Source: Escherichia coli (GTDB taxonomy: Bacteria; Pseudomonadota; Gammaproteobacteria; Enterobacterales; Enterobacteriaceae). Taken from it: DNA of 64,000 nucleotides. The notes under the pieces are model-generated. The model did not search any database. It saw only the letters and a program-made list of their open reading frames with translations, and was not told where the DNA came from. The stretch lies in NCBI RefSeq assembly GCF_009931435.1, contig NZ_CP043414.1, one strand, 5' to 3'. Positions 2,466 to 38,690 of the stretch are shown in pieces. The stretch's first letter is position 1; each line of letters opens with the position of its first letter. A program made the position numbers and the translations under genes.

Positions 2466-2544
2466 TTAAGCCGGTAATGCCTTGCTTCCATTGCGGATAA
2501 ATCCTACTTTTTTATTGCCTTCAAATAAATTTAAGGAGTTCGAA

Positions 2545-3945
2545 ATGGACCAGAAGCTGTTAACGGATTTCCGCTCAGAACTACTCGATTCACGTTTTGG
2601 CGCAAAGGCCATTTCTACTATCGCGGAGTCAAAACGATTTCCGCTGCACGAAATGCGCGATGATGTCGCATTCCAGATTATCAATGATGAATTATATCTT
2701 GATGGCAACGCTCGTCAGAACCTGGCCACTTTCTGCCAGACCTGGGACGACGAAAACGTCCATAAATTGATGGATTTGTCGATCAACAAAAACTGGATCG
2801 ACAAAGAAGAATATCCGCAATCTGCAGCTATCGACCTGCGTTGCGTAAACATGGTTGCTGACCTGTGGCATGCGCCTGCGCCGAAAAATGGTCAGGCCGT
2901 TGGCACCAACACCATTGGCTCTTCCGAGGCCTGTATGCTCGGCGGGATGGCGATGAAATGGCGTTGGCGCAAGCGTATGGAAGCCGCAGGCAAGCCAACG
3001 GATAAACCTAATCTGGTGTGCGGCCCGGTACAAATCTGCTGGCATAAATTTGCCCGTTACTGGGATGTGGAGCTGCGTGAAATCCCTATGCGCCCCGGTC
3101 AGTTGTTTATGGATCCGAAACGCATGATTGAAGCCTGCGACGAAAACACCATCGGCGTGGTGCCGACTTTCGGCGTGACCTACACCGGTAACTATGAATT
3201 CCCGCAACCGCTGCATGATGCACTGGATAAATTCCAGGCCGACACCGGTATCGACATCGACATGCACATCGACGCCGCCAGCGGTGGCTTCCTGGCACCG
3301 TTCGTCGCCCCGGATATCGTCTGGGACTTCCGCCTGCCGCGTGTGAAATCGATCAGTGCTTCAGGCCATAAATTCGGTCTGGCTCCGCTGGGCTGCGGCT
3401 GGGTTATCTGGCGTGATGAAGAAGCGCTGCCGCAGGAACTGGTGTTCAACGTTGACTATCTCGGTGGTCAGATTGGGACTTTCGCCATCAACTTCTCCCG
3501 CCCGGCGGGTCAGGTGATTGCACAGTATTATGAATTCCTGCGCCTCGGTCGTGAAGGCTATACCAAAGTACAGAACGCTTCCTACCAGGTTGCCGCTTAT
3601 CTGGCGGATGAAATCGCCAAACTGGGGCCGTATGAGTTCATCTGTACCGGTCGCCCGGACGAAGGCATCCCGGCGGTTTGCTTCAAACTGAAAGATGGTG
3701 AAGACCCGGGATACACCCTCTACGACCTCTCTGAACGTCTGCGCCTGCGCGGCTGGCAGGTTCCGGCCTTCACTCTCGGCGGTGAAGCCACTGACATCGT
3801 GGTGATGCGCATTATGTGCCGTCGTGGCTTCGAAATGGACTTTGCTGAACTGTTACTGGAAGACTACAAAGCCTCCCTGAAATACCTCAGCGATCACCCG
3901 AAACTGCAGGGTATAGCCCAGCAGAACAGCTTTAAACACACCTGA
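2545..3945 (+). CDS. gadA: Glutamate decarboxylase A (PLP-dependent)
   Basis: 466 aa from ATG at 2545 ([19 protein letters not shown]...); contains the SGHKFG PLP-lysine motif; adjacent to gadX, which identifies it as gadA rather than gadB. The ORF track begins 21 codons upstream at a non-ATG start. Confidence 0.92.
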
Positions 3946-4313: not shown

Positions 4314-5138
4314 ATGCAATCACTACATGGTAATTGTCTAATTGCGTACGCAAGACATAAATATATTCTCACCATGGTTAATGGTGAATATCGCTATTTT
4401 AATGGCGGTGAACTGGTTTTTGCGGATGCAAGTCAAATTCAAGTGGATAAGTGTGTCGAGAATTTTGTATTAGTTTCAAGGGACACGCTTTCATTATTTC
4501 TCCCGATGCTCAAGGAGGAGGCATTAAATCTTCATGCACATAAAAAAGTTCCTTCGTTACTCGTTCATCACTGTACCAGAGATATTCCTGTTTTTCAGGA
4601 GGTTGCGCAACTATCGCAGAATAAGAATCTGCGCTATGCAGAAATGCTCCGTAAAAGAGCATTAATCTTTGCGTTGTTATCTGTTTTCCTGGAGGACGAG
4701 CAGTTTATACCGCTGCTTCTGAACGTTTTGCAACCGAACATGCGAACACGAGTTTGTACGGTCATCAATAATAATATCGCCCATGAGTGGACATTAGCCC
4801 AAATCGCCAGCGAGCTGTTGATGAGTTCAAGCCTGTTAAAGAAAAAATTGCGCGAAGAAGGTACGTCATATTCACAGTTGCTTACTGAGTGTAGAATGCA
4901 ACGTGCTTTACAACTTATTGTTATACATGGGTTTTCAATTAAAAGAGTCGCAGTGTCCTGTGGTTATCACAGCGTGTCGTATTTCATTTACGTTTTTCGA
5001 AATTATTATGGGATGACGCCCACAGAGTATCAGGAGCGATCGGCACAAGAATTGCCGAACCGTGACTCGGTGGCAAGTATTGTTGCACAAGGGAATTTTT
5101 ACGGCACTGACCGTTCTGCGGAAGGAATAAGATTATAG
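4314..5138 (+). CDS. gadX: AraC-family acid resistance regulator GadX
   Basis: 274 aa; C-terminal AraC-type helix-turn-helix region; position immediately downstream of gadA. Confidence 0.9.
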   Translation: MQSLHGNCLIAYARHKYILTMVNGEYRYFNGGELVFADASQIQVDKCVENFVLVSRDTLSLFLPMLKEEALNLHAHKKVPSLLVHHCTRDIPVFQEVAQLSQNKNLRYAEMLRKRALIFALLSVFLEDEQFIPLLLNVLQPNMRTRVCTVINNNIAHEWTLAQIASELLMSSSLLKKKLREEGTSYSQLLTECRMQRALQLIVIHGFSIKRVAVSCGYHSVSYFIYVFRNYYGMTPTEYQERSAQELPNRDSVASIVAQGNFYGTDRSAEGIRL

Positions 5139-5154
5139 AGTTTTACTCAGACAT

Positions 5155-5260
5155 AAAAAAAACCCGGCATAGGGGACCGGGAAGAGGATAGTCTGCCGTC
5201 TCCAGACTAATAAACCGTTATAACACTCCCTGTTGGCACGGGAAACTTTGTGCTCTCAGT
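5155..5260 (-). ncRNA. gadY: GadY small RNA, antisense to the gadX 3' UTR
   Basis: Minus-strand sequence ACTGAGAGCACAAAGTTTCCCGTGCCAACAGGGAGTG...CCCTATGCCGGGTTTTTTTT matches the GadY sequence as I remember it; ends in a hairpin plus U-run; sits in the gadX-gadW intergenic region. Confidence 0.65.
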
Positions 5261-5506
5261 AAGTTAAATATAACTTTTACTGGAAATAAGATCAGCCATT
5301 TTTTTATAAACATAAGCTATACGCTGTGTGAAAATATATTGGTGTTGCATTTACTTATTATCAATTAACTGTTATGCAAAACTACTTTGTGGATAAATTT
5401 TGGTCCTACCAAATATGGCAGTTTTTGCACTAAGAAACAGTCTGGCGTCATTTCATTAGTATACTGAAATTGAAATAATCGCAGTAATGAAATATAAGGG
5501 ATAGTC

Positions 5507-6235
5507 ATGACTCATGTCTGCTCGGTGATCCTCGTTCGTCGTTCATTGGATATTCATCATGAACAGCAAAAAATATCGTTGCACAACGAAAGTATTCTAC
5601 TGCTGGATAAAAATTTGGCAGATGATTTTGCGTTTTGTTCACCGGATACGCGACGGCTGGATATCGATGAGCTGACAATTTGCCATTACTTACAAAATAT
5701 TCGTCAGCTACCACGCAATTTAGGGTTACATAGCAAAGACCGTTTGTTAATTAACCAGTCCCCCCCCATGCCTCTGGTGACGGCGATTTTTGATAGTTTC
5801 AATGAATCCGGGGTAAATTCGCCGATAATGAGCAAGATGCTTTACCTTTCCTGTTTATCAATGTTTTCTCATAAGAAAGAACTTATCCCCTTACTTTTCA
5901 ATAGTATCAGTACTGTTTCAGGAAAAGTTGAACGCCTTATTAGCTTTGATATCGCTAAACGTTGGTATCTACGCGATATCGCGGAAAGAATGTATACCAG
6001 CGAGAGTCTCATCAAAAAAAAGTTGCAGGATGAAAATACCTGTTTCAGTAAAATATTACTCGCCTCCAGGATGTCGATGGCCAGACGATTACTCGAGTTA
6101 CGTCAAATTCCTCTACATACTATTGCAGAAAAATGTGGGTATAGCAGTACGTCGTACTTTATAAACACATTTCGACAATATTATGGTGTAACGCCACATC
6201 AGTTTGCGCAACATTCTCCGGGTACCTTCTCCTGA
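5507..6235 (+). CDS. gadW: AraC-family regulator GadW
   Basis: 242 aa AraC-type regulator, paralogous to gadX, at the expected position. Confidence 0.9.
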   Translation: MTHVCSVILVRRSLDIHHEQQKISLHNESILLLDKNLADDFAFCSPDTRRLDIDELTICHYLQNIRQLPRNLGLHSKDRLLINQSPPMPLVTAIFDSFNESGVNSPIMSKMLYLSCLSMFSHKKELIPLLFNSISTVSGKVERLISFDIAKRWYLRDIAERMYTSESLIKKKLQDENTCFSKILLASRMSMARRLLELRQIPLHTIAEKCGYSSTSYFINTFRQYYGVTPHQFAQHSPGTFS

Positions 6236-10893: not shown

Positions 10894-11231
10894 TTTAGTC
10901 CCTGAAAATTCTTGAGATATAACGGTTCTTTAAATTGCGCGCGAGGAGAGGTATGAGGGATTTACAGACCAGCGGCATAGTGGGGTTGTCAGCCAGTAAG
11001 ATGGGATGCAAGCACAGTGATCGACATGGTGAGGTCAACGACAAAAAAAATGTTGCCGTTCTGCCAACAGTTCCTGCCAGCATTCGGGCAACGAAGGGTT
11101 CTACTGGTGGATACACATACCAGGGGAATAAAGTCGTTTTCGCCTCTCCTTTAGTCATCACCGGGGATAATGAAATCAGCATCTGCATCCCTCTTCATGC
11201 CTGCCATCATTTTCAGTTAATTATGTCCTGA

Positions 11232-11759
11232 CTAAAAATAAGATGTGATACCCAGGGTGACGATGTCGCTCATACGTCTTAGTTTCAGCTTGTACATAAT
11301 GTTGAATTTCTGAATCTTTAATGTTTGTTGCGAAATATTGAGCGTTGACGTGATATTGCTTTCGTTTTTGTTTTTCAGAATCAGCTGCATAATTTTGAAC
11401 TGATTATGTGAAAAACATAATTGTGAATTCTTATGGGGCAAGTGTTTACCATAAGTAATCTCAAGAAGATTTTTGATACTTTCTTTGCGGCTGACAAAAT
11501 AAATAGGCGCTTTAGCTTTTAGTTTACTGATGTGATAAGGTGCCAAAACAATAATTCTCTCGGCGTCTAATTTCTCCAGAAATTTAATCGCTTCTTCATC
11601 AAGGATATGGTTGTGATAGGTATCAATGATAACCTTGAAGGGTTTATTACCTACTTTTTTGATCTCTGACAGGGAATTGATTTTTATCATTTCGTGATTA
11701 TCTTTCAACTGCCAAAAGCCCTGTAAAAGAAAAGAATCTTTCGTCATGAGAAAAATCAT
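11232..11759 (-). CDS. gadE: LuxR-family acid resistance activator GadE
   Basis: 175 aa from ATG (complement of 11757-11759), MIFLMTKDSFLLQGFWQL...; C-terminal LuxR-type HTH. The ORF track extends 26 codons further upstream; I prefer the shorter start. Confidence 0.85.
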   Translation of the reverse strand: MIFLMTKDSFLLQGFWQLKDNHEMIKINSLSEIKKVGNKPFKVIIDTYHNHILDEEAIKFLEKLDAERIIVLAPYHISKLKAKAPIYFVSRKESIKNLLEITYGKHLPHKNSQLCFSHNQFKIMQLILKNKNESNITSTLNISQQTLKIQKFNIMYKLKLRRMSDIVTLGITSYF

Positions 11760-14890: not shown

Positions 14891-14921
14891 CAGGAGTACC
14901 AGAGCGGTACTCCTGTTGGTT
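14891..14921. terminator. Bidirectional hairpin between yhiD and chuV
   Basis: caggagtacc agag cggtactcctg followed by T-rich sequence; lies between convergent genes. Confidence 0.55.
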
Positions 14922-15692
14922 TTAATGATCGAGGACGATCAGTGGTGAATGGTTGGCAGGATCTTTAAGTACGGTAATATCCGCGCCGTAGAGCATTGTC
15001 AGCGCCTGCTGTGTCAATACGTCCTGCGGTTTACCATTTGCGATAACCTTTCCTTTTTGCATTAATACAACACGGTCTGCATAACGCGCGGCAAGATTTA
15101 GATCGTGCAATACGCAGCAAACATTGAACTGCCGTTCGTGAACTAGCTGGCGTAATAAACGAAACAAGTGCTGCTGATGGTGAATATCCAGCGCCGAAGT
15201 TGGTTCATCAAGAAATAACCATTTCGGTGAGGGAGTTGGTTCCCAGAGTTGCACCAGCAGGCGCGCTAATTGCACGCGCTGTTGTTCACCACCGGATAAT
15301 TGCCGATAGTCGCGGTTTGCTAACGCCTGACAGTCACATAACGCCATTATTTGTGCTGTTTCATTATCCTGATTACCAGTACGATGCGGATGCCGCCCCA
15401 TCTGGATAACTTCTTGTACGCTGAATGGAAACGCCATGTGGCTATTTTGACGCATCACGGCCCGGTGTTTCGCCAGTTCAGTAATCGACCATTCATTTAA
15501 TGGCTTATTAAACAACCGACATTCGCCGCTATCAGGTTGAAGATAGCCGGTTAACTGGCGAAGCAGCGTAGATTTTCCCGCACCATTAGGGCCGAGAATG
15601 GCAACAATTTCCCCACCGGGAAAAGTCAGCGAGACATTATCAGTCAGACGCCGCCCCTGAAGGCTATAAACCAGATTCTGGGCGCTGATCAT
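14922..15692 (-). CDS. chuV: Hemin ABC transporter ATP-binding protein
   Basis: ABC ATPase with Walker A (GPNGAGKST) and signature LSGGEQQR; start at [11 protein letters not shown] overlapping the chuU stop (ATGA). The ORF track start is 51 codons too far upstream. Confidence 0.85.
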
Positions 15693-16681
15693 GTGATCCT
15701 CCGGTTGCGCAGAATCAACCACATAAAATAAGGGCCACCAAGCAGGCTGGTTAATAATCCCACGGGCATTTCTGCTGGCTGTACCAGTGTGCGGGCAAGC
15801 GTGTCTGCCATCAGCAATAAACAGGCTCCGGCGAGGGCGGAGCAAGGGATTAGCCAGCGGTGATTTGCCCCGGTAGTCATACGAATCAGATGCGGGATCA
15901 CCAGGCCAATAAAGCCGATAATGCCGCTTACCGATACGGCGGCACCAACGAGCAGTGAGCTCACTAACAATAATTGCTGGCGTTTACGCTTAACGTTCAC
16001 GCCGAGGTAGTGGGCTTCTTCATCACCGAGCTGCAGTAAATTCAGCGTTCCGGCGAGACAAGTTGTTGCAATAATGGCCGGTAGGATGAATGAACTGGCA
16101 ACCAATAACGTCGGCCATTGCGCCTGTCCAAGATTGCCCATCATCCACAATGTGAGTTGTCGTAGCTGCTGCTCATCGCCGATATAGCTCAGGATGCCGA
16201 TCGCTGCGCCGCACAGGGCATTGATGGCGATACCGGCGAGTAATAATTGCATCATGCTGCCATCGCGATGGCGCTGCGTGATGAGAAAAATGATGGTGCA
16301 GACCACTAAACTTCCGGCAATGGCAAACACCATTTGCTCATAGAGCACCAGCACCACTGGGAAGGAAAAGGGCAGCACAATAGCAACGCCAACCATTAAT
16401 GCAGAACCGCTACTGACGCCGAGTAATCCAGGGTCAGCCATTGGGTTGCGAAAAAGCCCCTGCATAATTACCCCGGCGGTTGCCAACGCTGCACCTACCA
16501 GCACCGCCAGCAAAACCCGTGGTAGACGAATATTGAGCCAGATATCGCGGTATTCCTCATCAAAAAGGGCATCAAAACTGATCTTTAACGCTCCCTGACT
16601 GGCACCGAACAGCACCAGAGCTAGCAATAATAGTGATAGCCCCATAAAGACCCTGGCGGAAAAGAGTGAATCCTTGAGCAC
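15689..16681 (-). CDS. chuU: Hemin ABC transporter permease (FecCD family)
   Basis: 330 aa polytopic membrane protein, translationally coupled to chuV. Confidence 0.85.
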
Positions 16682-16729
16682 GCAAAACTCCGTTACGACA
16701 TTACGGCGCGGAGATTCCGCGCCGGGGGA

Positions 16730-17353
16730 TCACGCCGGTTTCAGGTCCGGTTCAATCAGACTGTAGACCTGCTGGTTAAGTGCTGGCGCATTTGCCAGTT
16801 CATGGATATGTGCGGCGACATCGGCGCGGTTAACAAAACCATGACACTCCTGATTTTGTATCCGTTGTGCTTTGCCCGTTGCCGCACCATCAAGCAGACC
16901 GCCAGGGCGGAGAATGGCGTAATCAAGTTGGCTGGTTTGCAACCAGCTTTCCGCCAGCGTTTTTTCCCGTACCGCCTGACCAAACGCAGCCTTTGCCCGC
17001 TCCGATAAAAACGGCCAGCTATCGCCACATCCCAAAGAGGTCACCAGAATCATGCGACTGATGCCGGCCTTTTCGGCCTCATCAATCACTGTTCTGTGTG
17101 CCAGATAATCCTGAGCTCCGCCCATTGTTGAGATGATAAGCGCATCCGGGCCAGCTGCGCGGCAAGCAGCCGCGACTACGCTGGCATCACAGGCGTCGCC
17201 TGTAAAAACCTGTACGCCTTGTTGCGCCAGTTTCGTGGCGGCATCAGCATGACGAATGACAGCAACGACCGGACGTTGTTCCGCCAGCGCCAGTTCAAGC
17301 GTTCTGGCACCCACACCTTTTCCGCCTGCGCCAAAGAGTAGCCACGGCGTCAT
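16730..17353 (-). CDS. chuY: ChuY, NAD(P)-binding Rossmann-fold protein of the heme utilisation operon
   Basis: 207 aa; N-terminal GxxGxxG-like motif (LLFGAGGKGVGA); position in the chu operon. Confidence 0.7.
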   Translation of the reverse strand: MTPWLLFGAGGKGVGARTLELALAEQRPVVAVIRHADAATKLAQQGVQVFTGDACDASVVAAACRAAGPDALIISTMGGAQDYLAHRTVIDEAEKAGISRMILVTSLGCGDSWPFLSERAKAAFGQAVREKTLAESWLQTSQLDYAILRPGGLLDGAATGKAQRIQNQECHGFVNRADVAAHIHELANAPALNQQVYSLIEPDLKPA

Positions 17354-17847
17354 CAGGCGTGTTCCTTTAACGATGCTGCCAGAGCATGGAAGGCGCTGAC
17401 TTGTTCGCTCAGGAGCTGACGATGGTCATCCCTGCCGAGGAAGATTTTCAGCATTGCGCTGCCTTCTTTGTTGAAAAAGAGAATGGATGCGGTGTCCATG
17501 CCCATAAATTTACGTTCGATCAAGGCAATATGTGTGCAGTTTTCTGCTTTGATATGCCCGGACATGCCGTGCTTTCCGCGTAGGTTGAAATAGCCGTGGC
17601 GATGGAAACCCGAAGGCAGTTCGCCGCTAAATTCGAGGATTACATCGGCAGTATGTACTAACGTGGTGACGTTGCCCCATTCGCAGACGGTATCCCAGAC
17701 AGTATCGAATTTATCGCCTGACACTACGGTAGAGGAGGGTAGATTTCTCACTACTTCCAGCAGTGTGGTGTTGTATTGTTCGGCTACCACCTCCAGCGTA
17801 CCGTCCGGCTCCGTTTTCAAAAATTCTTGTAACGAGACATGGCTCAT
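17353..17847 (-). CDS. chuX: ChuX heme-binding protein
   Basis: 164 aa; position between chuW and chuY in the operon. Confidence 0.7.
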   Translation of the reverse strand: MSHVSLQEFLKTEPDGTLEVVAEQYNTTLLEVVRNLPSSTVVSGDKFDTVWDTVCEWGNVTTLVHTADVILEFSGELPSGFHRHGYFNLRGKHGMSGHIKAENCTHIALIERKFMGMDTASILFFNKEGSAMLKIFLGRDDHRQLLSEQVSAFHALAASLKEHA

Positions 17848-17859
17848 AAATCACTCCTG

Positions 17860-19197
17860 TTATGGTTTTTCACGCACAATCGTTGGCGCATTAAGTACCT
17901 GAATTAGTTCATTAAGAGACTGCAAAATATTGCTTGCCCAGAAACGACCTTCATTAGTCAGCCGCAGGCAAGTTGAAGCATCGCGGCTTAAGCCTTTTTG
18001 GTGCCATTGAGCCAGTAACGGCGCGAGTTTTTCGGCATGTGGCGTAAGTTCATCCAGCGGTACACGCGCTGTTTCAACACCTGACTGCAAGGTATGACGC
18101 CATTGCGCATTACGTTCGGCGTTACGCATGATCATCATCAGCGGTTTTTTGCCTGCCGCGACGGATTCATGCCAGGTCTGAAGACTGCGTTCGTTCATCC
18201 AGGAGTAACCATTAATCGAACCGCCGGCTCCGGAACCAAAGGCCAGACAATCGGCACCTTGTTTAATCAGCAGGTTATAGAGATTGCGTTCGCGTGTGGT
18301 ACGGCCCCAGTGGCTGTTACTGATACAGCGCCAACCAGCTTCGTCCATGAAGTCACACCCTTGCAGATAAAGATCGCGTCGTTCTGCCGGAGAGGGCACG
18401 GTAGTACGCCCATTTTCCACGGCTTTGCCCAGCGGTGTATTGGGCAGGACATTGAGCGCATAGAGATCGACGCCGTCGAGACCGATATCGCGGGCAATAG
18501 TCAGATCTTCTCCCCAGGTTTGCGCATCCTGACCCGGCAGGCCAAACAGAAGGTCACAGACCACCGCAGCACGGTCGCGTTTGACCAGGCTTTCCATAAA
18601 CGCAATGGCGGTTGGGCCATCCGAGGTGCGGGCCATTTTCTTACGGATTTTGCTGTTAAACGACTGAATACCAATTGAGAAGCGGTTTGCTCCTGCATCA
18701 AGGCAAGCATCGATTCGCTCAGCGTCAAAATTCAGTACCCGGCCTTCGATAGTGATTTCACAATCAGGGGCCAGTGGCAGCTTTTCTCGTAATGTGGTGA
18801 TAATTCTGGCCAAATCGTGTGCCGAAAGCGCGGAAGGCGTGCCACCACCGAAATAGACCGCGTGGATGGGGGCAGACTGATGCAATACGCTGTCCGCTTC
18901 CATTTCTATTTCACGAATCAGGGCGTCGGTATAATGAGCACACGCATCTTCATTAAAACGGTTCTGATAAAAACCACAAAACGTGCAGTGTGTTGCACAA
19001 AAAGGAATGTGTAGATAAACCAGTCGCTTACGTGGTGATACCGTTTGATTGAGCATCTCTTGCCAGGTCTGTGCCAGTTGCTCTTTGGCAACTGGAATGG
19101 CCCCACGAAACGGCATCATGGCGCGCCTGTCTTTAAATGGCTGATCACCGTCTAAAGCAAAATGTGGCGTGAGATCCAGGGTGTTATTTGTGTTCAT
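17860..19197 (-). CDS. chuW: ChuW radical SAM enzyme (HemN-like, anaerobic heme degradation)
   Basis: 445 aa with the radical SAM CxxxCxxC motif (CATHCTFCGFY). Confidence 0.82.
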   Translation of the reverse strand: MNTNNTLDLTPHFALDGDQPFKDRRAMMPFRGAIPVAKEQLAQTWQEMLNQTVSPRKRLVYLHIPFCATHCTFCGFYQNRFNEDACAHYTDALIREIEMEADSVLHQSAPIHAVYFGGGTPSALSAHDLARIITTLREKLPLAPDCEITIEGRVLNFDAERIDACLDAGANRFSIGIQSFNSKIRKKMARTSDGPTAIAFMESLVKRDRAAVVCDLLFGLPGQDAQTWGEDLTIARDIGLDGVDLYALNVLPNTPLGKAVENGRTTVPSPAERRDLYLQGCDFMDEAGWRCISNSHWGRTTRERNLYNLLIKQGADCLAFGSGAGGSINGYSWMNERSLQTWHESVAAGKKPLMMIMRNAERNAQWRHTLQSGVETARVPLDELTPHAEKLAPLLAQWHQKGLSRDASTCLRLTNEGRFWASNILQSLNELIQVLNAPTIVREKP

Positions 19198-19216
19198 TCG
19201 TCTGATTTAAATCCAT

Positions 19217-20131
19217 TTATTGCGGCCAAAGCTGCTGGTGTAAAGACTCAACGACATCAGCAATACGCGGACCCATTCCCAGAATCAGGTTTTGATCAAC
19301 GGTGATAATGCGCTGGTTTTTCCATGCGGCAGTGTGGGTAATTCCGGCAATAGAACGTAGCCGGTTAATATCGCCATCGACCATTTGTGAGGTTACGACA
19401 ATCACTTCTGGATTAGCCGCAATCAGTGATTCTGCACTGTAGCTTTTGTACTGCTGGTGGGTTGCGACGTTTTCTGCTCCGGCAAGCGAAAGAATGGCGT
19501 CCGCGACGCTGCCTTTACCGGCAACCTGTGGCGCACTTCCGCCTGCGGAGAGAATAAACATGGCTTTAACCGGGGCTTTTTTGGCCGCCACGTTTTGCTG
19601 TACTCGCTCCAGGCGTTGGTTGATCTGTGTCACCAGCGCCTCGCCTTGTTCAGGAACCTGTAGCGTTTTTGCCAGTTGGCGAATGTTGGCGTACATCTGC
19701 TCAAGGGTGGCAGGCACACGCGGCAGGGTGACGACGTTGACTTTCTGCGCTCGTAGTTGGTCGAGCACAATTTGTGGCCCGGCATCCTGCCAGGTAATTA
19801 CGCTATCCGGGCGAAGTGACAAAATGCCTTCGCTGCTGAGTTGTTTCCAGTAGCCAATATGCGGCAGTTTGGCGGTTTCTGGTGGATAAGATGTCGTTTC
19901 ATCGACACCAACCACGCGTTCGCCAGCGCCCATCGCGTAGATTAGCTCCGTCAGCGATCCTCCTGCGACCACGATACGTTCGGCAGCCGTTACGCTAAAA
20001 GCCCAGCTAAGAGCCAGTACTGCCGTAAACAATTTTTTTCGTTTTACCGCGGTCTTCGCGGCAGAGGCCACGGCTGAAATACATAACGTCAGTGGGGAAA
20101 AAAGAAACGGCCTGGTGGTGATCCTTGGCAT
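19217..20131 (-). CDS. chuT: Periplasmic hemin-binding protein ChuT
   Basis: Periplasmic binding protein; I place the start at MPRITTRPFLF... (304 aa) because the longer call would cover a Fur-box-like site. Confidence 0.75.
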   Translation of the reverse strand: MPRITTRPFLFSPLTLCISAVASAAKTAVKRKKLFTAVLALSWAFSVTAAERIVVAGGSLTELIYAMGAGERVVGVDETTSYPPETAKLPHIGYWKQLSSEGILSLRPDSVITWQDAGPQIVLDQLRAQKVNVVTLPRVPATLEQMYANIRQLAKTLQVPEQGEALVTQINQRLERVQQNVAAKKAPVKAMFILSAGGSAPQVAGKGSVADAILSLAGAENVATHQQYKSYSAESLIAANPEVIVVTSQMVDGDINRLRSIAGITHTAAWKNQRIITVDQNLILGMGPRIADVVESLHQQLWPQ

Positions 20132-20156
20132 AATATGAGAACTCTTATCAAATTGA

Positions 20157-20177
20157 GAATGATCATGATTATCATTT
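20157..20177. promoter_or_regulatory. Fur-box-like operator upstream of chuT
   Basis: gaatgatcatgattatcatt resembles the Fur consensus GATAATGATAATCATTATC; lies in the chuT-chuA divergent region. Confidence 0.5.
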
Positions 20178-20814
20178 GAGTTATATATGAAATACAACCG
20201 TCGATTCAATACGCAAGGCGTTACAAGCGTATTTATTTTTGATTTTTATCAAGATACTTCGTCAGCTAACGTTCTTGTTACCGACTAAATTTCAGCGCGG
20301 GAAAAAGCTGAGAACCCAGAGATATCGCGGCTTGCAGAGCAAAGAGAAGAGAAAATTATCACTGTTAACGACAAAGTTTAGTGATGAGGTCATGGGGGAA
20401 TAACCATAAAAACAAAGTGGTTTCCAGGGCGCAGGATAGGTTTCATAACCCCCTGTTTATTGTGTTAATGGCGGTTAAAAAAAAGCTTGATCATAAAAAA
20501 TTGATCGATAATAATTCTCATTATCACGTTCGCGCTTAACAAAACACGACCATATGGATAACAAAACCATAGCATTTGCAAGGGATAACGCACAGCGCTC
20601 TTCACTCCTGATGGGGCATATCGTTTTGCCTGATAAAGAGGGCGTGCTTTTGCGTATTTGCCGAGATACCAGGCAATTTCATGGGATATAAACGCCTGTA
20701 AACTCACCCGGCGAATATTATCGCTCTGAATTTTAAATAAATTTATTTCTCGCAAGCCACCCCGGTATTAACCCAGGCAGCCAGCATTTTTTATTTTCCT
20801 CATGGAGAATCGCT

Positions 20815-22797
20815 ATGTCACGTCCGCAATTTACCTCGTTGCGTTTGAGTTTGTTGGCTTTGGCTGTTTCTGCCACCTTGCCAACGTTTGCTTTTGCTAC
20901 TGAAACCATGACCGTTACGGCAACGGGGAATGCCCGTAGTTCCTTCGAAGCGCCTATGATGGTCAGCGTCATCGACACTTCCGCTCCTGAAAATCAAACG
21001 GCTACTTCAGCCACCGATCTGCTGCGTCATGTTCCTGGAATTACTCTTGATGGTACCGGACGAACCAACGGTCAGGATGTAAATATGCGTGGCTATGATC
21101 ATCGCGGCGTGCTGGTTCTTGTCGATGGTGTTCGCCAGGGAACGGATACCGGACACCTGAATGGTACTTTTCTCGATCCGGCGCTGATCAAGCGTGTTGA
21201 GATTGTTCGCGGACCTTCAGCATTACTGTATGGCAGTGGCGCGCTGGGTGGGGTGATCTCCTACGATACGGTCGATGCAAAAGATTTATTGCAGGAAGGA
21301 CAAAGTAGTGGTTTTCGTGTCTTTGGTACTGGTGGCACGGGGGACCATAGCCTGGGATTAGGCGCGAGCGCGTTTGGGCGAACTGAAAATCTGGATGGTA
21401 TTGTGGCCTGGTCCAGTCGCGATCGGGGTGATTTACGCCAGAGCAATGGTGAAACCGCGCCGAATGACGAGTCCATTAATAACATGCTGGCGAAAGGGAC
21501 CTGGCAAATTGATTCAGCCCAGTCTCTGAGCGGATTAGTGCGTTATTACAACAACGACGCGCGTGAACCAAAAAATCCGCAGACCGTTGAGGCTTCTGAA
21601 AACAGCAACCCGATGGTTGATCGTTCAACAATTCAACGCGATGCGCAGCTTTCTTATAAACTCGCCCCGCAGGGCAACGACTGGTTAAATGCAGATGCAA
21701 AAATTTACTGGTCGGAAGTCCGTATTAATGCGCAAAACACGGGGAGTTCCGGCGAGTATCGTGAACAGATAACAAAAGGAGCCAGGCTGGAGAACCGTTC
21801 CACTCTATTTGCCGACAGTTTCGCTTCTCACTTACTGACATATGGCGGTGAGTATTATCGTCAGGAACAACATCCGGGCGGCGCGACGACGGGCTTCCCG
21901 CAAGCAAAAATCGATTTTAGCTCCGGCTGGCTACAGGATGAGATCACCTTACGCGATCTGCCGATTACTCTGCTTGGCGGAACCCGCTATGACAGTTATC
22001 GCGGTAGCAGCGACGGCTACAAAGATGTTGATGCCGACAAATGGTCATCTCGTGCGGGGATGACTATCAACCCGACCAACTGGCTGATGTTATTTGGCTC
22101 ATATGCCCAGGCATTCCGCGCCCCGACGATGGGCGAAATGTATAACGATTCTAAGCACTTCTCGATTGGTCGCTTCTATACCAACTATTGGGTGCCAAAC
22201 CCGAACTTACGTCCGGAAACTAACGAAACTCAGGAGTACGGTTTTGGGCTGCGTTTTGATGACCTGATGTTGTCCAATGATGCCCTGGAATTTAAAGCCA
22301 GCTACTTTGATACCAAAGCGAAGGATTACATCTCCACGACTGTCGATTTCGCGGCGGCGACAACTATGTCGTATAACGTCCCGAACGCCAAAATCTGGGG
22401 CTGGGATGTGATGACGAAATATACCACTGATCTGTTTAGCCTTGATGTGGCCTATAACCGTACCCGCGGCAAAGACACCGATACCGGGGAATATATTTCC
22501 AGTATTAACCCGGATACCGTTACCAGCACCCTGAATATTCCGATCGCTCACAGTGGCTTCTCTGTTGGTTGGGTCGGTACGTTTGCCGATCGCTCAACAC
22601 ATATCAGCAGCAGTTACAGCAAACAACCTGGCTATGGTGTGAATGATTTCTACGTCAGTTATCAAGGGCAGCAGGCGCTCAAAGGTATGACCACTACTCT
22701 GGTATTGGGCAACGCCTTCGACAAAGAGTACTGGTCGCCGCAAGGCATCCCACAGGATGGTCGTAACGGAAAAATTTTCGTGAGTTATCAATGGTAA
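20815..22797 (+). CDS. chuA: TonB-dependent outer membrane heme/hemoglobin receptor ChuA
   Basis: 660 aa with signal peptide, plug and barrel domains, C-terminal aromatic residue (...VSYQW). Confidence 0.9.
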   Translation: MSRPQFTSLRLSLLALAVSATLPTFAFATETMTVTATGNARSSFEAPMMVSVIDTSAPENQTATSATDLLRHVPGITLDGTGRTNGQDVNMRGYDHRGVLVLVDGVRQGTDTGHLNGTFLDPALIKRVEIVRGPSALLYGSGALGGVISYDTVDAKDLLQEGQSSGFRVFGTGGTGDHSLGLGASAFGRTENLDGIVAWSSRDRGDLRQSNGETAPNDESINNMLAKGTWQIDSAQSLSGLVRYYNNDAREPKNPQTVEASENSNPMVDRSTIQRDAQLSYKLAPQGNDWLNADAKIYWSEVRINAQNTGSSGEYREQITKGARLENRSTLFADSFASHLLTYGGEYYRQEQHPGGATTGFPQAKIDFSSGWLQDEITLRDLPITLLGGTRYDSYRGSSDGYKDVDADKWSSRAGMTINPTNWLMLFGSYAQAFRAPTMGEMYNDSKHFSIGRFYTNYWVPNPNLRPETNETQEYGFGLRFDDLMLSNDALEFKASYFDTKAKDYISTTVDFAAATTMSYNVPNAKIWGWDVMTKYTTDLFSLDVAYNRTRGKDTDTGEYISSINPDTVTSTLNIPIAHSGFSVGWVGTFADRSTHISSSYSKQPGYGVNDFYVSYQGQQALKGMTTTLVLGNAFDKEYWSPQGIPQDGRNGKIFVSYQW

Positions 22798-22845
22798 TCA
22801 TCTGCCCCGATATTTCGGGGCATTTATCTGGAAGGAAGAGAGACA

Positions 22846-23874
22846 ATGAACCACTACACACGCTGGCTTGAGTTAAAAGAACAAAATCCCGGAAAGTACG
22901 CGCGTGACATCGCAGGTTTAATGAATATTAGCGAAGCAGAACTGGCATTTGCGCGCGTCACGCACGATGCGTGGCGGATGTGCGGCGATATCCGTGACAT
23001 TCTGGCGGCGCTCGAAAGTGTTGGCGAGACCAAATGTATTTGTCGTAATGAATATGCAGTCCATGAGCAAGTTGGTGCGTTCACAAACCAGCATTTAAAC
23101 GGACATGCCGGATTGATCCTCAATCCGCGCGCGCTGGATTTGCGTCTGTTTCTCAATCAATGGGCCAGTGTTTTCCACATCAAAGAAAATACGACTCGTG
23201 GCGAACGCCAGAGTATTCAGTTCTTTGATCATCAGGGCGATGCATTACTAAAAGTTTATGCCACCGACAATACCGATATGGCGGCATGGAGTGAGCTTCT
23301 GGCACGGTTTATCACCGATGAGAATACGCCGCTTGAGTTAAAAGCCGTTGATGCGCCAGTTGTTCAAACGCGAGCCGATGCCAGTGTGGTCGAGCAAGAG
23401 TGGCGGGCGATGACCGACGTTCATCAGTTTTTTACGTTGCTCAAGCGCCACAACCTGACGCGCCAACAGGCGTTCAATTTGGTGGCAGATGATTTGGCCT
23501 GCAAAGTATCCAACAGTGCGTTGGCGCAAATTCTTGAATCTGCACAGCAGGATGGCAATGAAATCATGGTGTTTGTTGGCAACCGTGGCTGCGTACAGAT
23601 TTTCACTGGCGTGGTAGAAAAAGTGGTGCCAATGAAAGGTTGGCTGAATATTTTTAACCCGACGTTTACTCTTCATCTATTAGAAGAGAGCATTGCTGAA
23701 ACCTGGGTAACCCGTAAACCTGCTAGTGACGGTTATGTGACCAGTCTGGAATTGTTTGCCCATGATGGTACGCAGATAGCGCAACTTTATGGTCAACGTA
23801 CAGAAGGCGAACAGGAGCAAGCGCAATGGCGTAAGCAAATTGCTTCGCTGATACCGGAAGGCGTTACTGCATAA
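22846..23874 (+). CDS. chuS: Heme oxygenase / hemin-degrading protein ChuS
   Basis: 342 aa directly downstream of chuA. Confidence 0.85.
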   Translation: MNHYTRWLELKEQNPGKYARDIAGLMNISEAELAFARVTHDAWRMCGDIRDILAALESVGETKCICRNEYAVHEQVGAFTNQHLNGHAGLILNPRALDLRLFLNQWASVFHIKENTTRGERQSIQFFDHQGDALLKVYATDNTDMAAWSELLARFITDENTPLELKAVDAPVVQTRADASVVEQEWRAMTDVHQFFTLLKRHNLTRQQAFNLVADDLACKVSNSALAQILESAQQDGNEIMVFVGNRGCVQIFTGVVEKVVPMKGWLNIFNPTFTLHLLEESIAETWVTRKPASDGYVTSLELFAHDGTQIAQLYGQRTEGEQEQAQWRKQIASLIPEGVTA

Positions 23875-23934
23875 CGTATAATTAAAGGGAGGTCTGGCTA
23901 TTTATTGCTGGGCCTCTTTATATTAATCAATCGA

Positions 23935-29345: not shown

Positions 29346-29496
29346 ATTACGCTCCTGATTGTTGCACTTAGTGTCTCTCTTCGAAGCGGATAAGTCAAAA
29401 ACATATATGACTTAACGAATATGTAAGTGTAGAGAAAGGTATAGGTGTGAATTAAGCGTTGGGTGTTCATTTGAAAGGAAGTCTGAATCAGGATGT

Positions 29497-29580
29497 AAAA
29501 AAACCGACTTTGCGTCGGTTTTTTACTCTTCAGCCAGAGTTGGTGGCTCTGGCTGGAGTGAGAATGCCCACATCTAACGG
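29497..29580 (-). ncRNA. agrA: agrA-like small RNA (dinQ-repeat unit 1)
   Basis: First copy of the repeated element ending, on the minus strand, in a hairpin (ccgacgcaaagtcgg) plus U-run; homologous to the dinQ leader. Boundaries and strand rest partly on remembered literature. Confidence 0.45.
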
Positions 29581-29729
29581 TTCAATACTATTAGCCAGTG
29601 GCTAACATTGCAAGCGTTAGCGATTTCTTCAGCTGGCGAAGGGACAGTTTGCTATACATGGTGGTGAAAGAGGATTGATATACTTTCATCGGGTCGCTGC
29701 CGTACCAAGCCTTGTCCGAATCCGGACGT

Positions 29730-29813
29730 AAAAAAACCGACTTCGCGTCGGTTTTTTTACTCTTCAGCCCAGAGTTGGTGGCTCTGGCTGGAGTGAGATA
29801 GCCATCATCTAAC
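29730..29813 (-). ncRNA. agrB: agrB-like antisense small RNA (dinQ-repeat unit 2)
   Basis: Second copy of the same repeat with a terminator hairpin (ccgacgcgaagtcgg) plus U-run on the minus strand. Confidence 0.45.
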
Positions 29814-38565: not shown

Positions 38566-38690
38566 AATTGCCTGATGCGCTACGCTTATCAGGCCTACAT
38601 AATCTCTGCAATCTATTGAATTTGCATGTTTTTGTAGGCTGGATAAGGCGTTCACGCCGCATCCGGCATGAACAAAGCGCACTATGTCAA
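38566..38690. repeat. REP/BIME-type extragenic palindromic element
   Basis: gcctgatgcgctacgcttatcaggcctac ... gtaggctggataaggcgttcacgccgcatccggcatg are classic E. coli REP palindromes. Confidence 0.7.

Follow-up and report, generated by a model that had tools for sequence, protein, structure and literature searches.

Positions 5155–5260 of the minus strand almost certainly carry gadY, the small RNA gene of an E. coli-type acid fitness island, with its own promoter, a Rho-independent terminator and a cis-antisense action on gadX-gadW. Positions are those of the window, the 64,000-nucleotide stretch of DNA analysed here. The analysis itself establishes what the gene is, where and on which strand it lies, its terminator and -10 element, and how well it is conserved.

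Identity, boundaries and setting of gadY

A search of the whole window against Rfam 15 with cmscan returned GadY (RF00122) as the best match, at 5150–5263 on the minus strand, with 150 bits (E = 8.3e-32) against a gathering score of 45 bits for this family. The match covers model positions 1–114 of 114, and all residues are those of the consensus. I also compared the segment to the curated record of K-12 MG1655 (NC_000913.3), where the ncRNA gadY (b4452) is annotated at 3664864–3664969, between gadW and gadX, with a length of 106 nt. The two genes are identical at 106/106 positions, and alignment of 5120–5300 (minus strand) to the gadY regions of K-12 and CFT073 gave 181/181 identical positions. 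The K-12 gene thus has the same sequence, position, orientation, terminator and -10 element, with at least 40 nt identical on each side. The first-pass annotation had recognised GadY on the minus strand between gadX and gadW, and had proposed the covariance model as the check; the full-length RF00122 match, well above the gathering score, bears this out, together with the identity to K-12 and the same gadX-gadY-gadW order.

The gene and its two neighbours are given below, with gadX and gadW taken from the open reading frame (ORF) list and the annotation of matching genomes.

4314–5138, plus strand: gadX, AraC-family acid-resistance activator, 274 aa, with its stop codon TAG at 5136–5138
5155–5260, minus strand: gadY small RNA gene, from the full-model RF00122 match and the identity to b4452; 106 nt in the K-12 RefSeq annotation
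5507–6235, plus strand: gadW, 242 aa

With this arrangement gadY is antisense to both neighbours, and the gadX-gadW spacer of 368 nt contains the GadY match. Between the 3' end of gadY (5155) and the gadX stop codon there are 16 nt (5139–5154) that do not belong to gadY; the overlap is therefore with the gadX 3' UTR, or gadX-gadW intercistronic RNA, only, and the gadX coding sequence is untouched. The interval of 5139–5260 proposed in the first-pass annotation has an exact 5' end, but its 3' limit runs 16 nt too far, position 5139 being the first base past the gadX stop codon. Likewise, the overlap with the 3' end of gadX on the opposite strand described there holds for the 3' UTR, but does not reach the coding sequence.

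An ORF search found no reading frame of at least 20 aa wholly inside the gadY transcript. A 31-aa minus-strand ORF at 5218–5313 was considered as a hidden small ORF in gadY and rejected, as it begins upstream of the gadY 5' end.

The window corresponds to an E. coli-type chromosome segment with the acid fitness island (gadA, gadX, gadW, mdtFE, gadE, hdeD, hdeAB and yhiD). The gene order gadA-gadX-(gadY)-gadW-mdtF is the same as in K-12; gadA precedes gadX, and mdtF, encoded on the opposite strand, follows gadW. The mechanically called gadA ORF (2482–3945, plus strand) opens at an upstream TTG and encodes 487 aa; in related annotated genomes gadA starts at an internal ATG (2545 in locus L003) and encodes 466 aa, so that the extra length of the called ORF is an artefact, produced by taking the first possible start. 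Compared to the K-12 locus, the island also has a chu/shu heme-uptake cluster at ~14900–23900, between yhiD and dctR, comprising an ATPase, chuU, chuY, hutX, hutW, shuT, chuA and chuS; K-12 presumably has no such insertion in its acid fitness island. Among 5,426 complete E. coli genomes, ~2231 cover at least 80% of positions 1–24000, and the best 24-kb matches show 99.2% identity for 1–24000 and 98.4% for 24001–48000. The source genome is either outside this collection or from a sparsely sampled lineage.

Several other Rfam families matched elsewhere in the window. An ES205 sRNA match at 11043–11114 (minus strand; 105 bits, gathering score 86) is located downstream of gadE (11230–11757, minus strand), in the gadE-mdtE spacer, and ends in a hairpin and U-run. 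It looks like a gadE 3'-UTR-derived sRNA, and may be the RNA called GadF. One RefSeq record places a "hypothetical protein" on the opposite strand (locus L003, 10951–11229), which is probably spurious. Two tandem AgrB matches, at 29495–29577 and 29728–29812 (both minus strand; ~90 bits each, gathering score 40), presumably represent agrA/agrB, the two antisense RNAs encoded in the arsR-gor region, a pair that acts by pairing with the dinQ toxin mRNA. The shuA/chuA 5' UTR thermoregulator was matched at 20786–20817 (plus strand; 60.1 bits, gathering score 58), directly ahead of chuA, which starts at ~20812 in the annotated locus that matches here. Finally, an ES036 (CssrF) sRNA match at 38591–38631 (minus strand) is barely above its gathering score (42 versus 37.6).

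Promoter, terminator and predicted fold

The control and structural elements assigned to gadY are listed in the direction of its transcription.

5290–5295, minus strand: weak -35-like hexamer CTGATC, with 3/6 matches to TTGACA and a 17-nt spacer
5267–5272, minus strand: -10 element TATATT, at -12 to -7 from the annotated 5' end, read from the sequence
5214–5260, minus strand: predicted 5' stem-loop region (RNA positions 1–47), for which the minimum free energy (MFE) fold and the Rfam consensus agree
5189–5209, minus strand: predicted central hairpin (RNA positions 52–72) with a UAGUCUG/CAGACUA stem, identical in the MFE fold, the Rfam consensus and RNAalifold
5155–5181, minus strand: intrinsic terminator of gadY, with a stem-loop at 5181–5163 and U8 at 5162–5155, from the terminator scan, MFE fold, Rfam consensus and RNAalifold

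Both promoter hexamers are invariant in six Escherichia copies, and K-12 has the same -10 element and the same 68 nt ahead of the gadY start. A generic sigma-70 scan did not flag the gadY promoter, because the poor -35 (3/6) leaves it below the 9-of-12 rule of that scan; with a good -10 element present, this miss is not counted against a promoter. A poor -35 is indeed expected, since the promoter is reported to be sigma-S- and activator-dependent, and the combination of a good -10 and a poor -35 would fit this dependence. An AppY-bound motif has been reported to overlap the gadY -35 (PMC10057817), and may correspond to the hexamer at 5290–5295.

At the other end of the gene, the stem-loop identified by the terminator scan possesses 6 pairs, 5 of which are G-C, and a loop of 7, and is followed on the minus strand by T8, in agreement with the terminal hairpin and U-run of the first-pass annotation. 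This hairpin lies 25 nt past the end of gadX, and most RefSeq/PGAP records of other E. coli genomes show gadX only, with no ncRNA, as one would expect if the hairpin and its flanks were merely the 3' UTR and terminator of gadX, with no independent antisense RNA. Such an explanation is hardly conceivable. The T-run is found on the minus strand only, and on the plus strand A8 comes before the hairpin and AAGAGG after it, so that the hairpin cannot serve gadX as an intrinsic terminator and was rejected in that role. The terminator scan found no plus-strand terminator between the gadX stop codon and gadW. In addition, a conserved -10 element is present at the right distance from the annotated gadY 5' end, the segment is identical to the experimentally characterised and curated gadY of K-12, and the missing ncRNA in the PGAP records is a matter of annotation practice.

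For the independent gadY transcript, folding of the single sequence gave three hairpins, the same as in the Rfam consensus structure. RNAalifold, applied to six Escherichia copies, prefers a 5' fold that differs from both the MFE and the Rfam structures; the 5' part of the predicted structure is therefore uncertain, and only the terminator and the central hairpin are robustly predicted across methods. The MFE of GadY is no better than that of shuffled sequence (z = -0.64), and with this non-significant value the overall fold energy provides no evidence here. No compensatory base changes were found among the six Escherichia copies (3 variable positions, RNAalifold covariation term of 0), the family being narrow and highly conserved; covariation support is absent because GadY is almost invariant. 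Two substitutions, in E. whittamii and in Escherichia sp. E1V33, break predicted 5'-stem pairs. GadY possesses two GGA motifs, at RNA positions 32 and 58, the second of which (58–60) lies in the central hairpin, running from the final base of the stem into the loop.

Conservation of gadY and its possible causes

Of the 5426 complete E. coli genomes, 5412 contain the 221-nt segment 5100–5320, in every case in the chromosome, and 5355 have it at an identity of at least 99%. Comparison to K-12 over the 1922-nt stretch from gadX to gadW revealed 86 differences (4.5%), of which 45 are in gadX, 33 in gadW and the remaining 8 in the part of the spacer that separates gadW from the start of gadY. In contrast to these diverged flanks, gadY itself has none. 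The differences amount to 5.5% of nucleotides and 12 amino acid changes in gadX, and to 4.5% and 7 changes in gadW; for core-like genes both are unusually diverged from K-12, and the gadY block between them is identical. The longest identical run, of 241 nt (5088–5328), is centred on gadY; it reaches 68 nt past the gadY start on the upstream side, and at its other end takes in 51 nt of gadX. If differences occurred at the local rate, 106 nt would be free of them with a probability of ~0.008, and 241 nt with one of ~2e-5.

When one genome of each species was scanned with a sequence pattern, only five records showed the central part of GadY. All five belong to Escherichia (E. whittamii, two E. 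coli and two other Escherichia sp.) and match RF00122 at 123–150 bits; as 30 bases of the central hairpin region were constant in the pattern itself, conservation there is biased upwards. In the alignment of six Escherichia copies, the gadY transcribed segment and the -10/-35 elements are almost invariant, with 3 variable positions, and similarity breaks off abruptly right after the U-run, within the 16 nt that separate gadY from the gadX stop codon.

A cis-antisense RNA is complementary to its target whatever mutates, and pairing with gadX-gadW alone therefore cannot explain the invariance of gadY. The constraint would rather come from RNA structure, from recognition by proteins or nucleases, from trans targets or from regulatory sites at the DNA level. 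One can tentatively envisage that a factor other than pairing (Hfq, CsrA, nuclease recognition or trans targets) imposes this invariance, in which case the cis role could be the lesser part of what GadY does.

A stronger proposal along these lines is that both the conservation and the main role of GadY derive from trans activities, namely CsrA titration, Hfq-dependent base-pairing to unlinked mRNAs (for example sdiA) and effects on pgaABCD and biofilm formation, with the cis effect being secondary. Cis pairing cannot account for 0/106 differences against a background of 4.5%, and the two GGA motifs are consistent with such a role, as are several published observations: CsrA binds GadY with high affinity (PMC5694010), a trans effect on sdiA has been reported (PMC11300174), and a GadY-dependent biofilm effect has been linked to the pgaABCD operon (PMC10057817). 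However, no activity of GadY is better documented than its cis effect on gadX-gadW, and the structure of the terminator and hairpins, Hfq binding, nuclease recognition or DNA-level sites could equally explain the conservation. Cis and trans roles are, moreover, not mutually exclusive, and I consider it unlikely that the trans activities are the principal ones.

Less probable still is that the conserved block reflects not selection on an RNA but DNA-level sites in the control region from which gadY and gadW diverge (for GadX/GadW or AppY, or sigma-S promoter elements), or else a tract that recombined recently. The identical run does reach beyond the transcript, both upstream of the gadY start and into gadX, and AppY binds the gadY promoter (PMC10057817). 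In the six Escherichia genomes, however, conservation spans the whole transcribed segment and stops sharply past the U-run, and an edge at this position fits an RNA unit, not a protein-binding site. Sites of this kind, or recombination, may account for the upstream part only.

Action on the gadX-gadW transcript

The proposed target of GadY is the strand opposite to the gene:

5155–5260, plus strand: target segment in the gadX 3' UTR / gadX-gadW intercistronic RNA, perfectly complementary to GadY because it is the opposite strand

A bicistronic gadX-gadW mRNA has been described (PMC10783499; PMC3919570; PMC5694010), and GadY pairs over its entire length with the gadX-gadW intergenic target (PMC5694010). 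The absence of a plus-strand terminator between gadX and gadW fits such a read-through mRNA, in which the gadX transcript would cross gadY in this strain as well. GadY has been reported to occur as three RNAs that share their 3' end, the longest of 105 nt and the others of 90 and 59 nt (PMC3050690). If the 3' end is indeed shared, the 59-nt form would begin at about RNA position 47 (~5214 in the window), in the AU-rich linker right after the 5' stem-loop, and this shortest form would not possess the 5' stem-loop region.

As it is cited in PMC3050690 and PMC10057817, the 2004 description (Opdyke 2004) is that GadY stabilises gadX mRNA. The first-pass annotation had adopted this role, which is broadly correct; later work, referred to in PMC3919570 and PMC5694010, adds that the bicistronic gadX-gadW mRNA is cut inside the region of pairing, in a GadY-dependent manner. 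In the account given in PMC3919570, RNase III participates but is not solely responsible, as cleavage persists in its absence, suggesting another double-strand nuclease. A further source (PMC10783499) names RNase E in the text and RNase III in a figure legend. The nuclease that cuts gadX-gadW is thus not cleanly settled, with secondary sources disagreeing between RNase E and RNase III.

Based on these reports, gadY would be transcribed antisense to the gadX-gadW intercistronic region, which makes it complementary to the gadX 3' UTR at every position. The resulting duplex would lead to endonucleolytic cleavage of the gadX-gadW transcript, by RNase III and at least one other nuclease, and the cleaved gadX (and gadW) mRNAs would accumulate, increasing GadX. 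More GadX would in turn increase the expression of the glutamate-dependent acid-resistance genes. This mechanism of cleavage and stabilisation rests on the literature for the identical K-12 sequence. Because of that identity, the expression of gadY, its sigma-S dependence, its binding to Hfq and CsrA and its size forms are carried over from K-12 along with it.

The antisense transcription of GadY, resulting in a perfect duplex, is shared with the OOP RNA/cII-O system of lambda and with the type I antitoxins Sok/hok and OrzO/zorO. In these systems, as for GadY, RNase III takes part in cutting the paired region, with residual cleavage in its absence (PMC3919570). The outcome is nonetheless different, since cleavage represses the target in OOP/cII-O, Sok/hok and OrzO/zorO, whereas the products of GadY-dependent cleavage accumulate and the effect on gadX is positive. 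GadY also pairs with the 3' UTR/intercistronic region of its target, and not with the 5' region as in these other systems, and it additionally binds Hfq (PMC11300174) and CsrA (PMC5694010).

The gadY gene described here is an ordinary, previously described E. coli feature, whose identification is not contested by any evidence, and no new biology follows from it. Its value lies in correct annotation, as the RefSeq/PGAP records of most E. coli genomes show only gadX at this location and omit gadY, a real and functional regulator of glutamate-dependent acid resistance that the scan recovers correctly. The argument for constraint is an interpretation rather than a new finding, and leaves the identification unchanged. 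The locus is nevertheless mildly instructive, in that gadY forms a conserved island amid the rapidly diverging gadX and gadW, a pattern that cis pairing alone would not explain.
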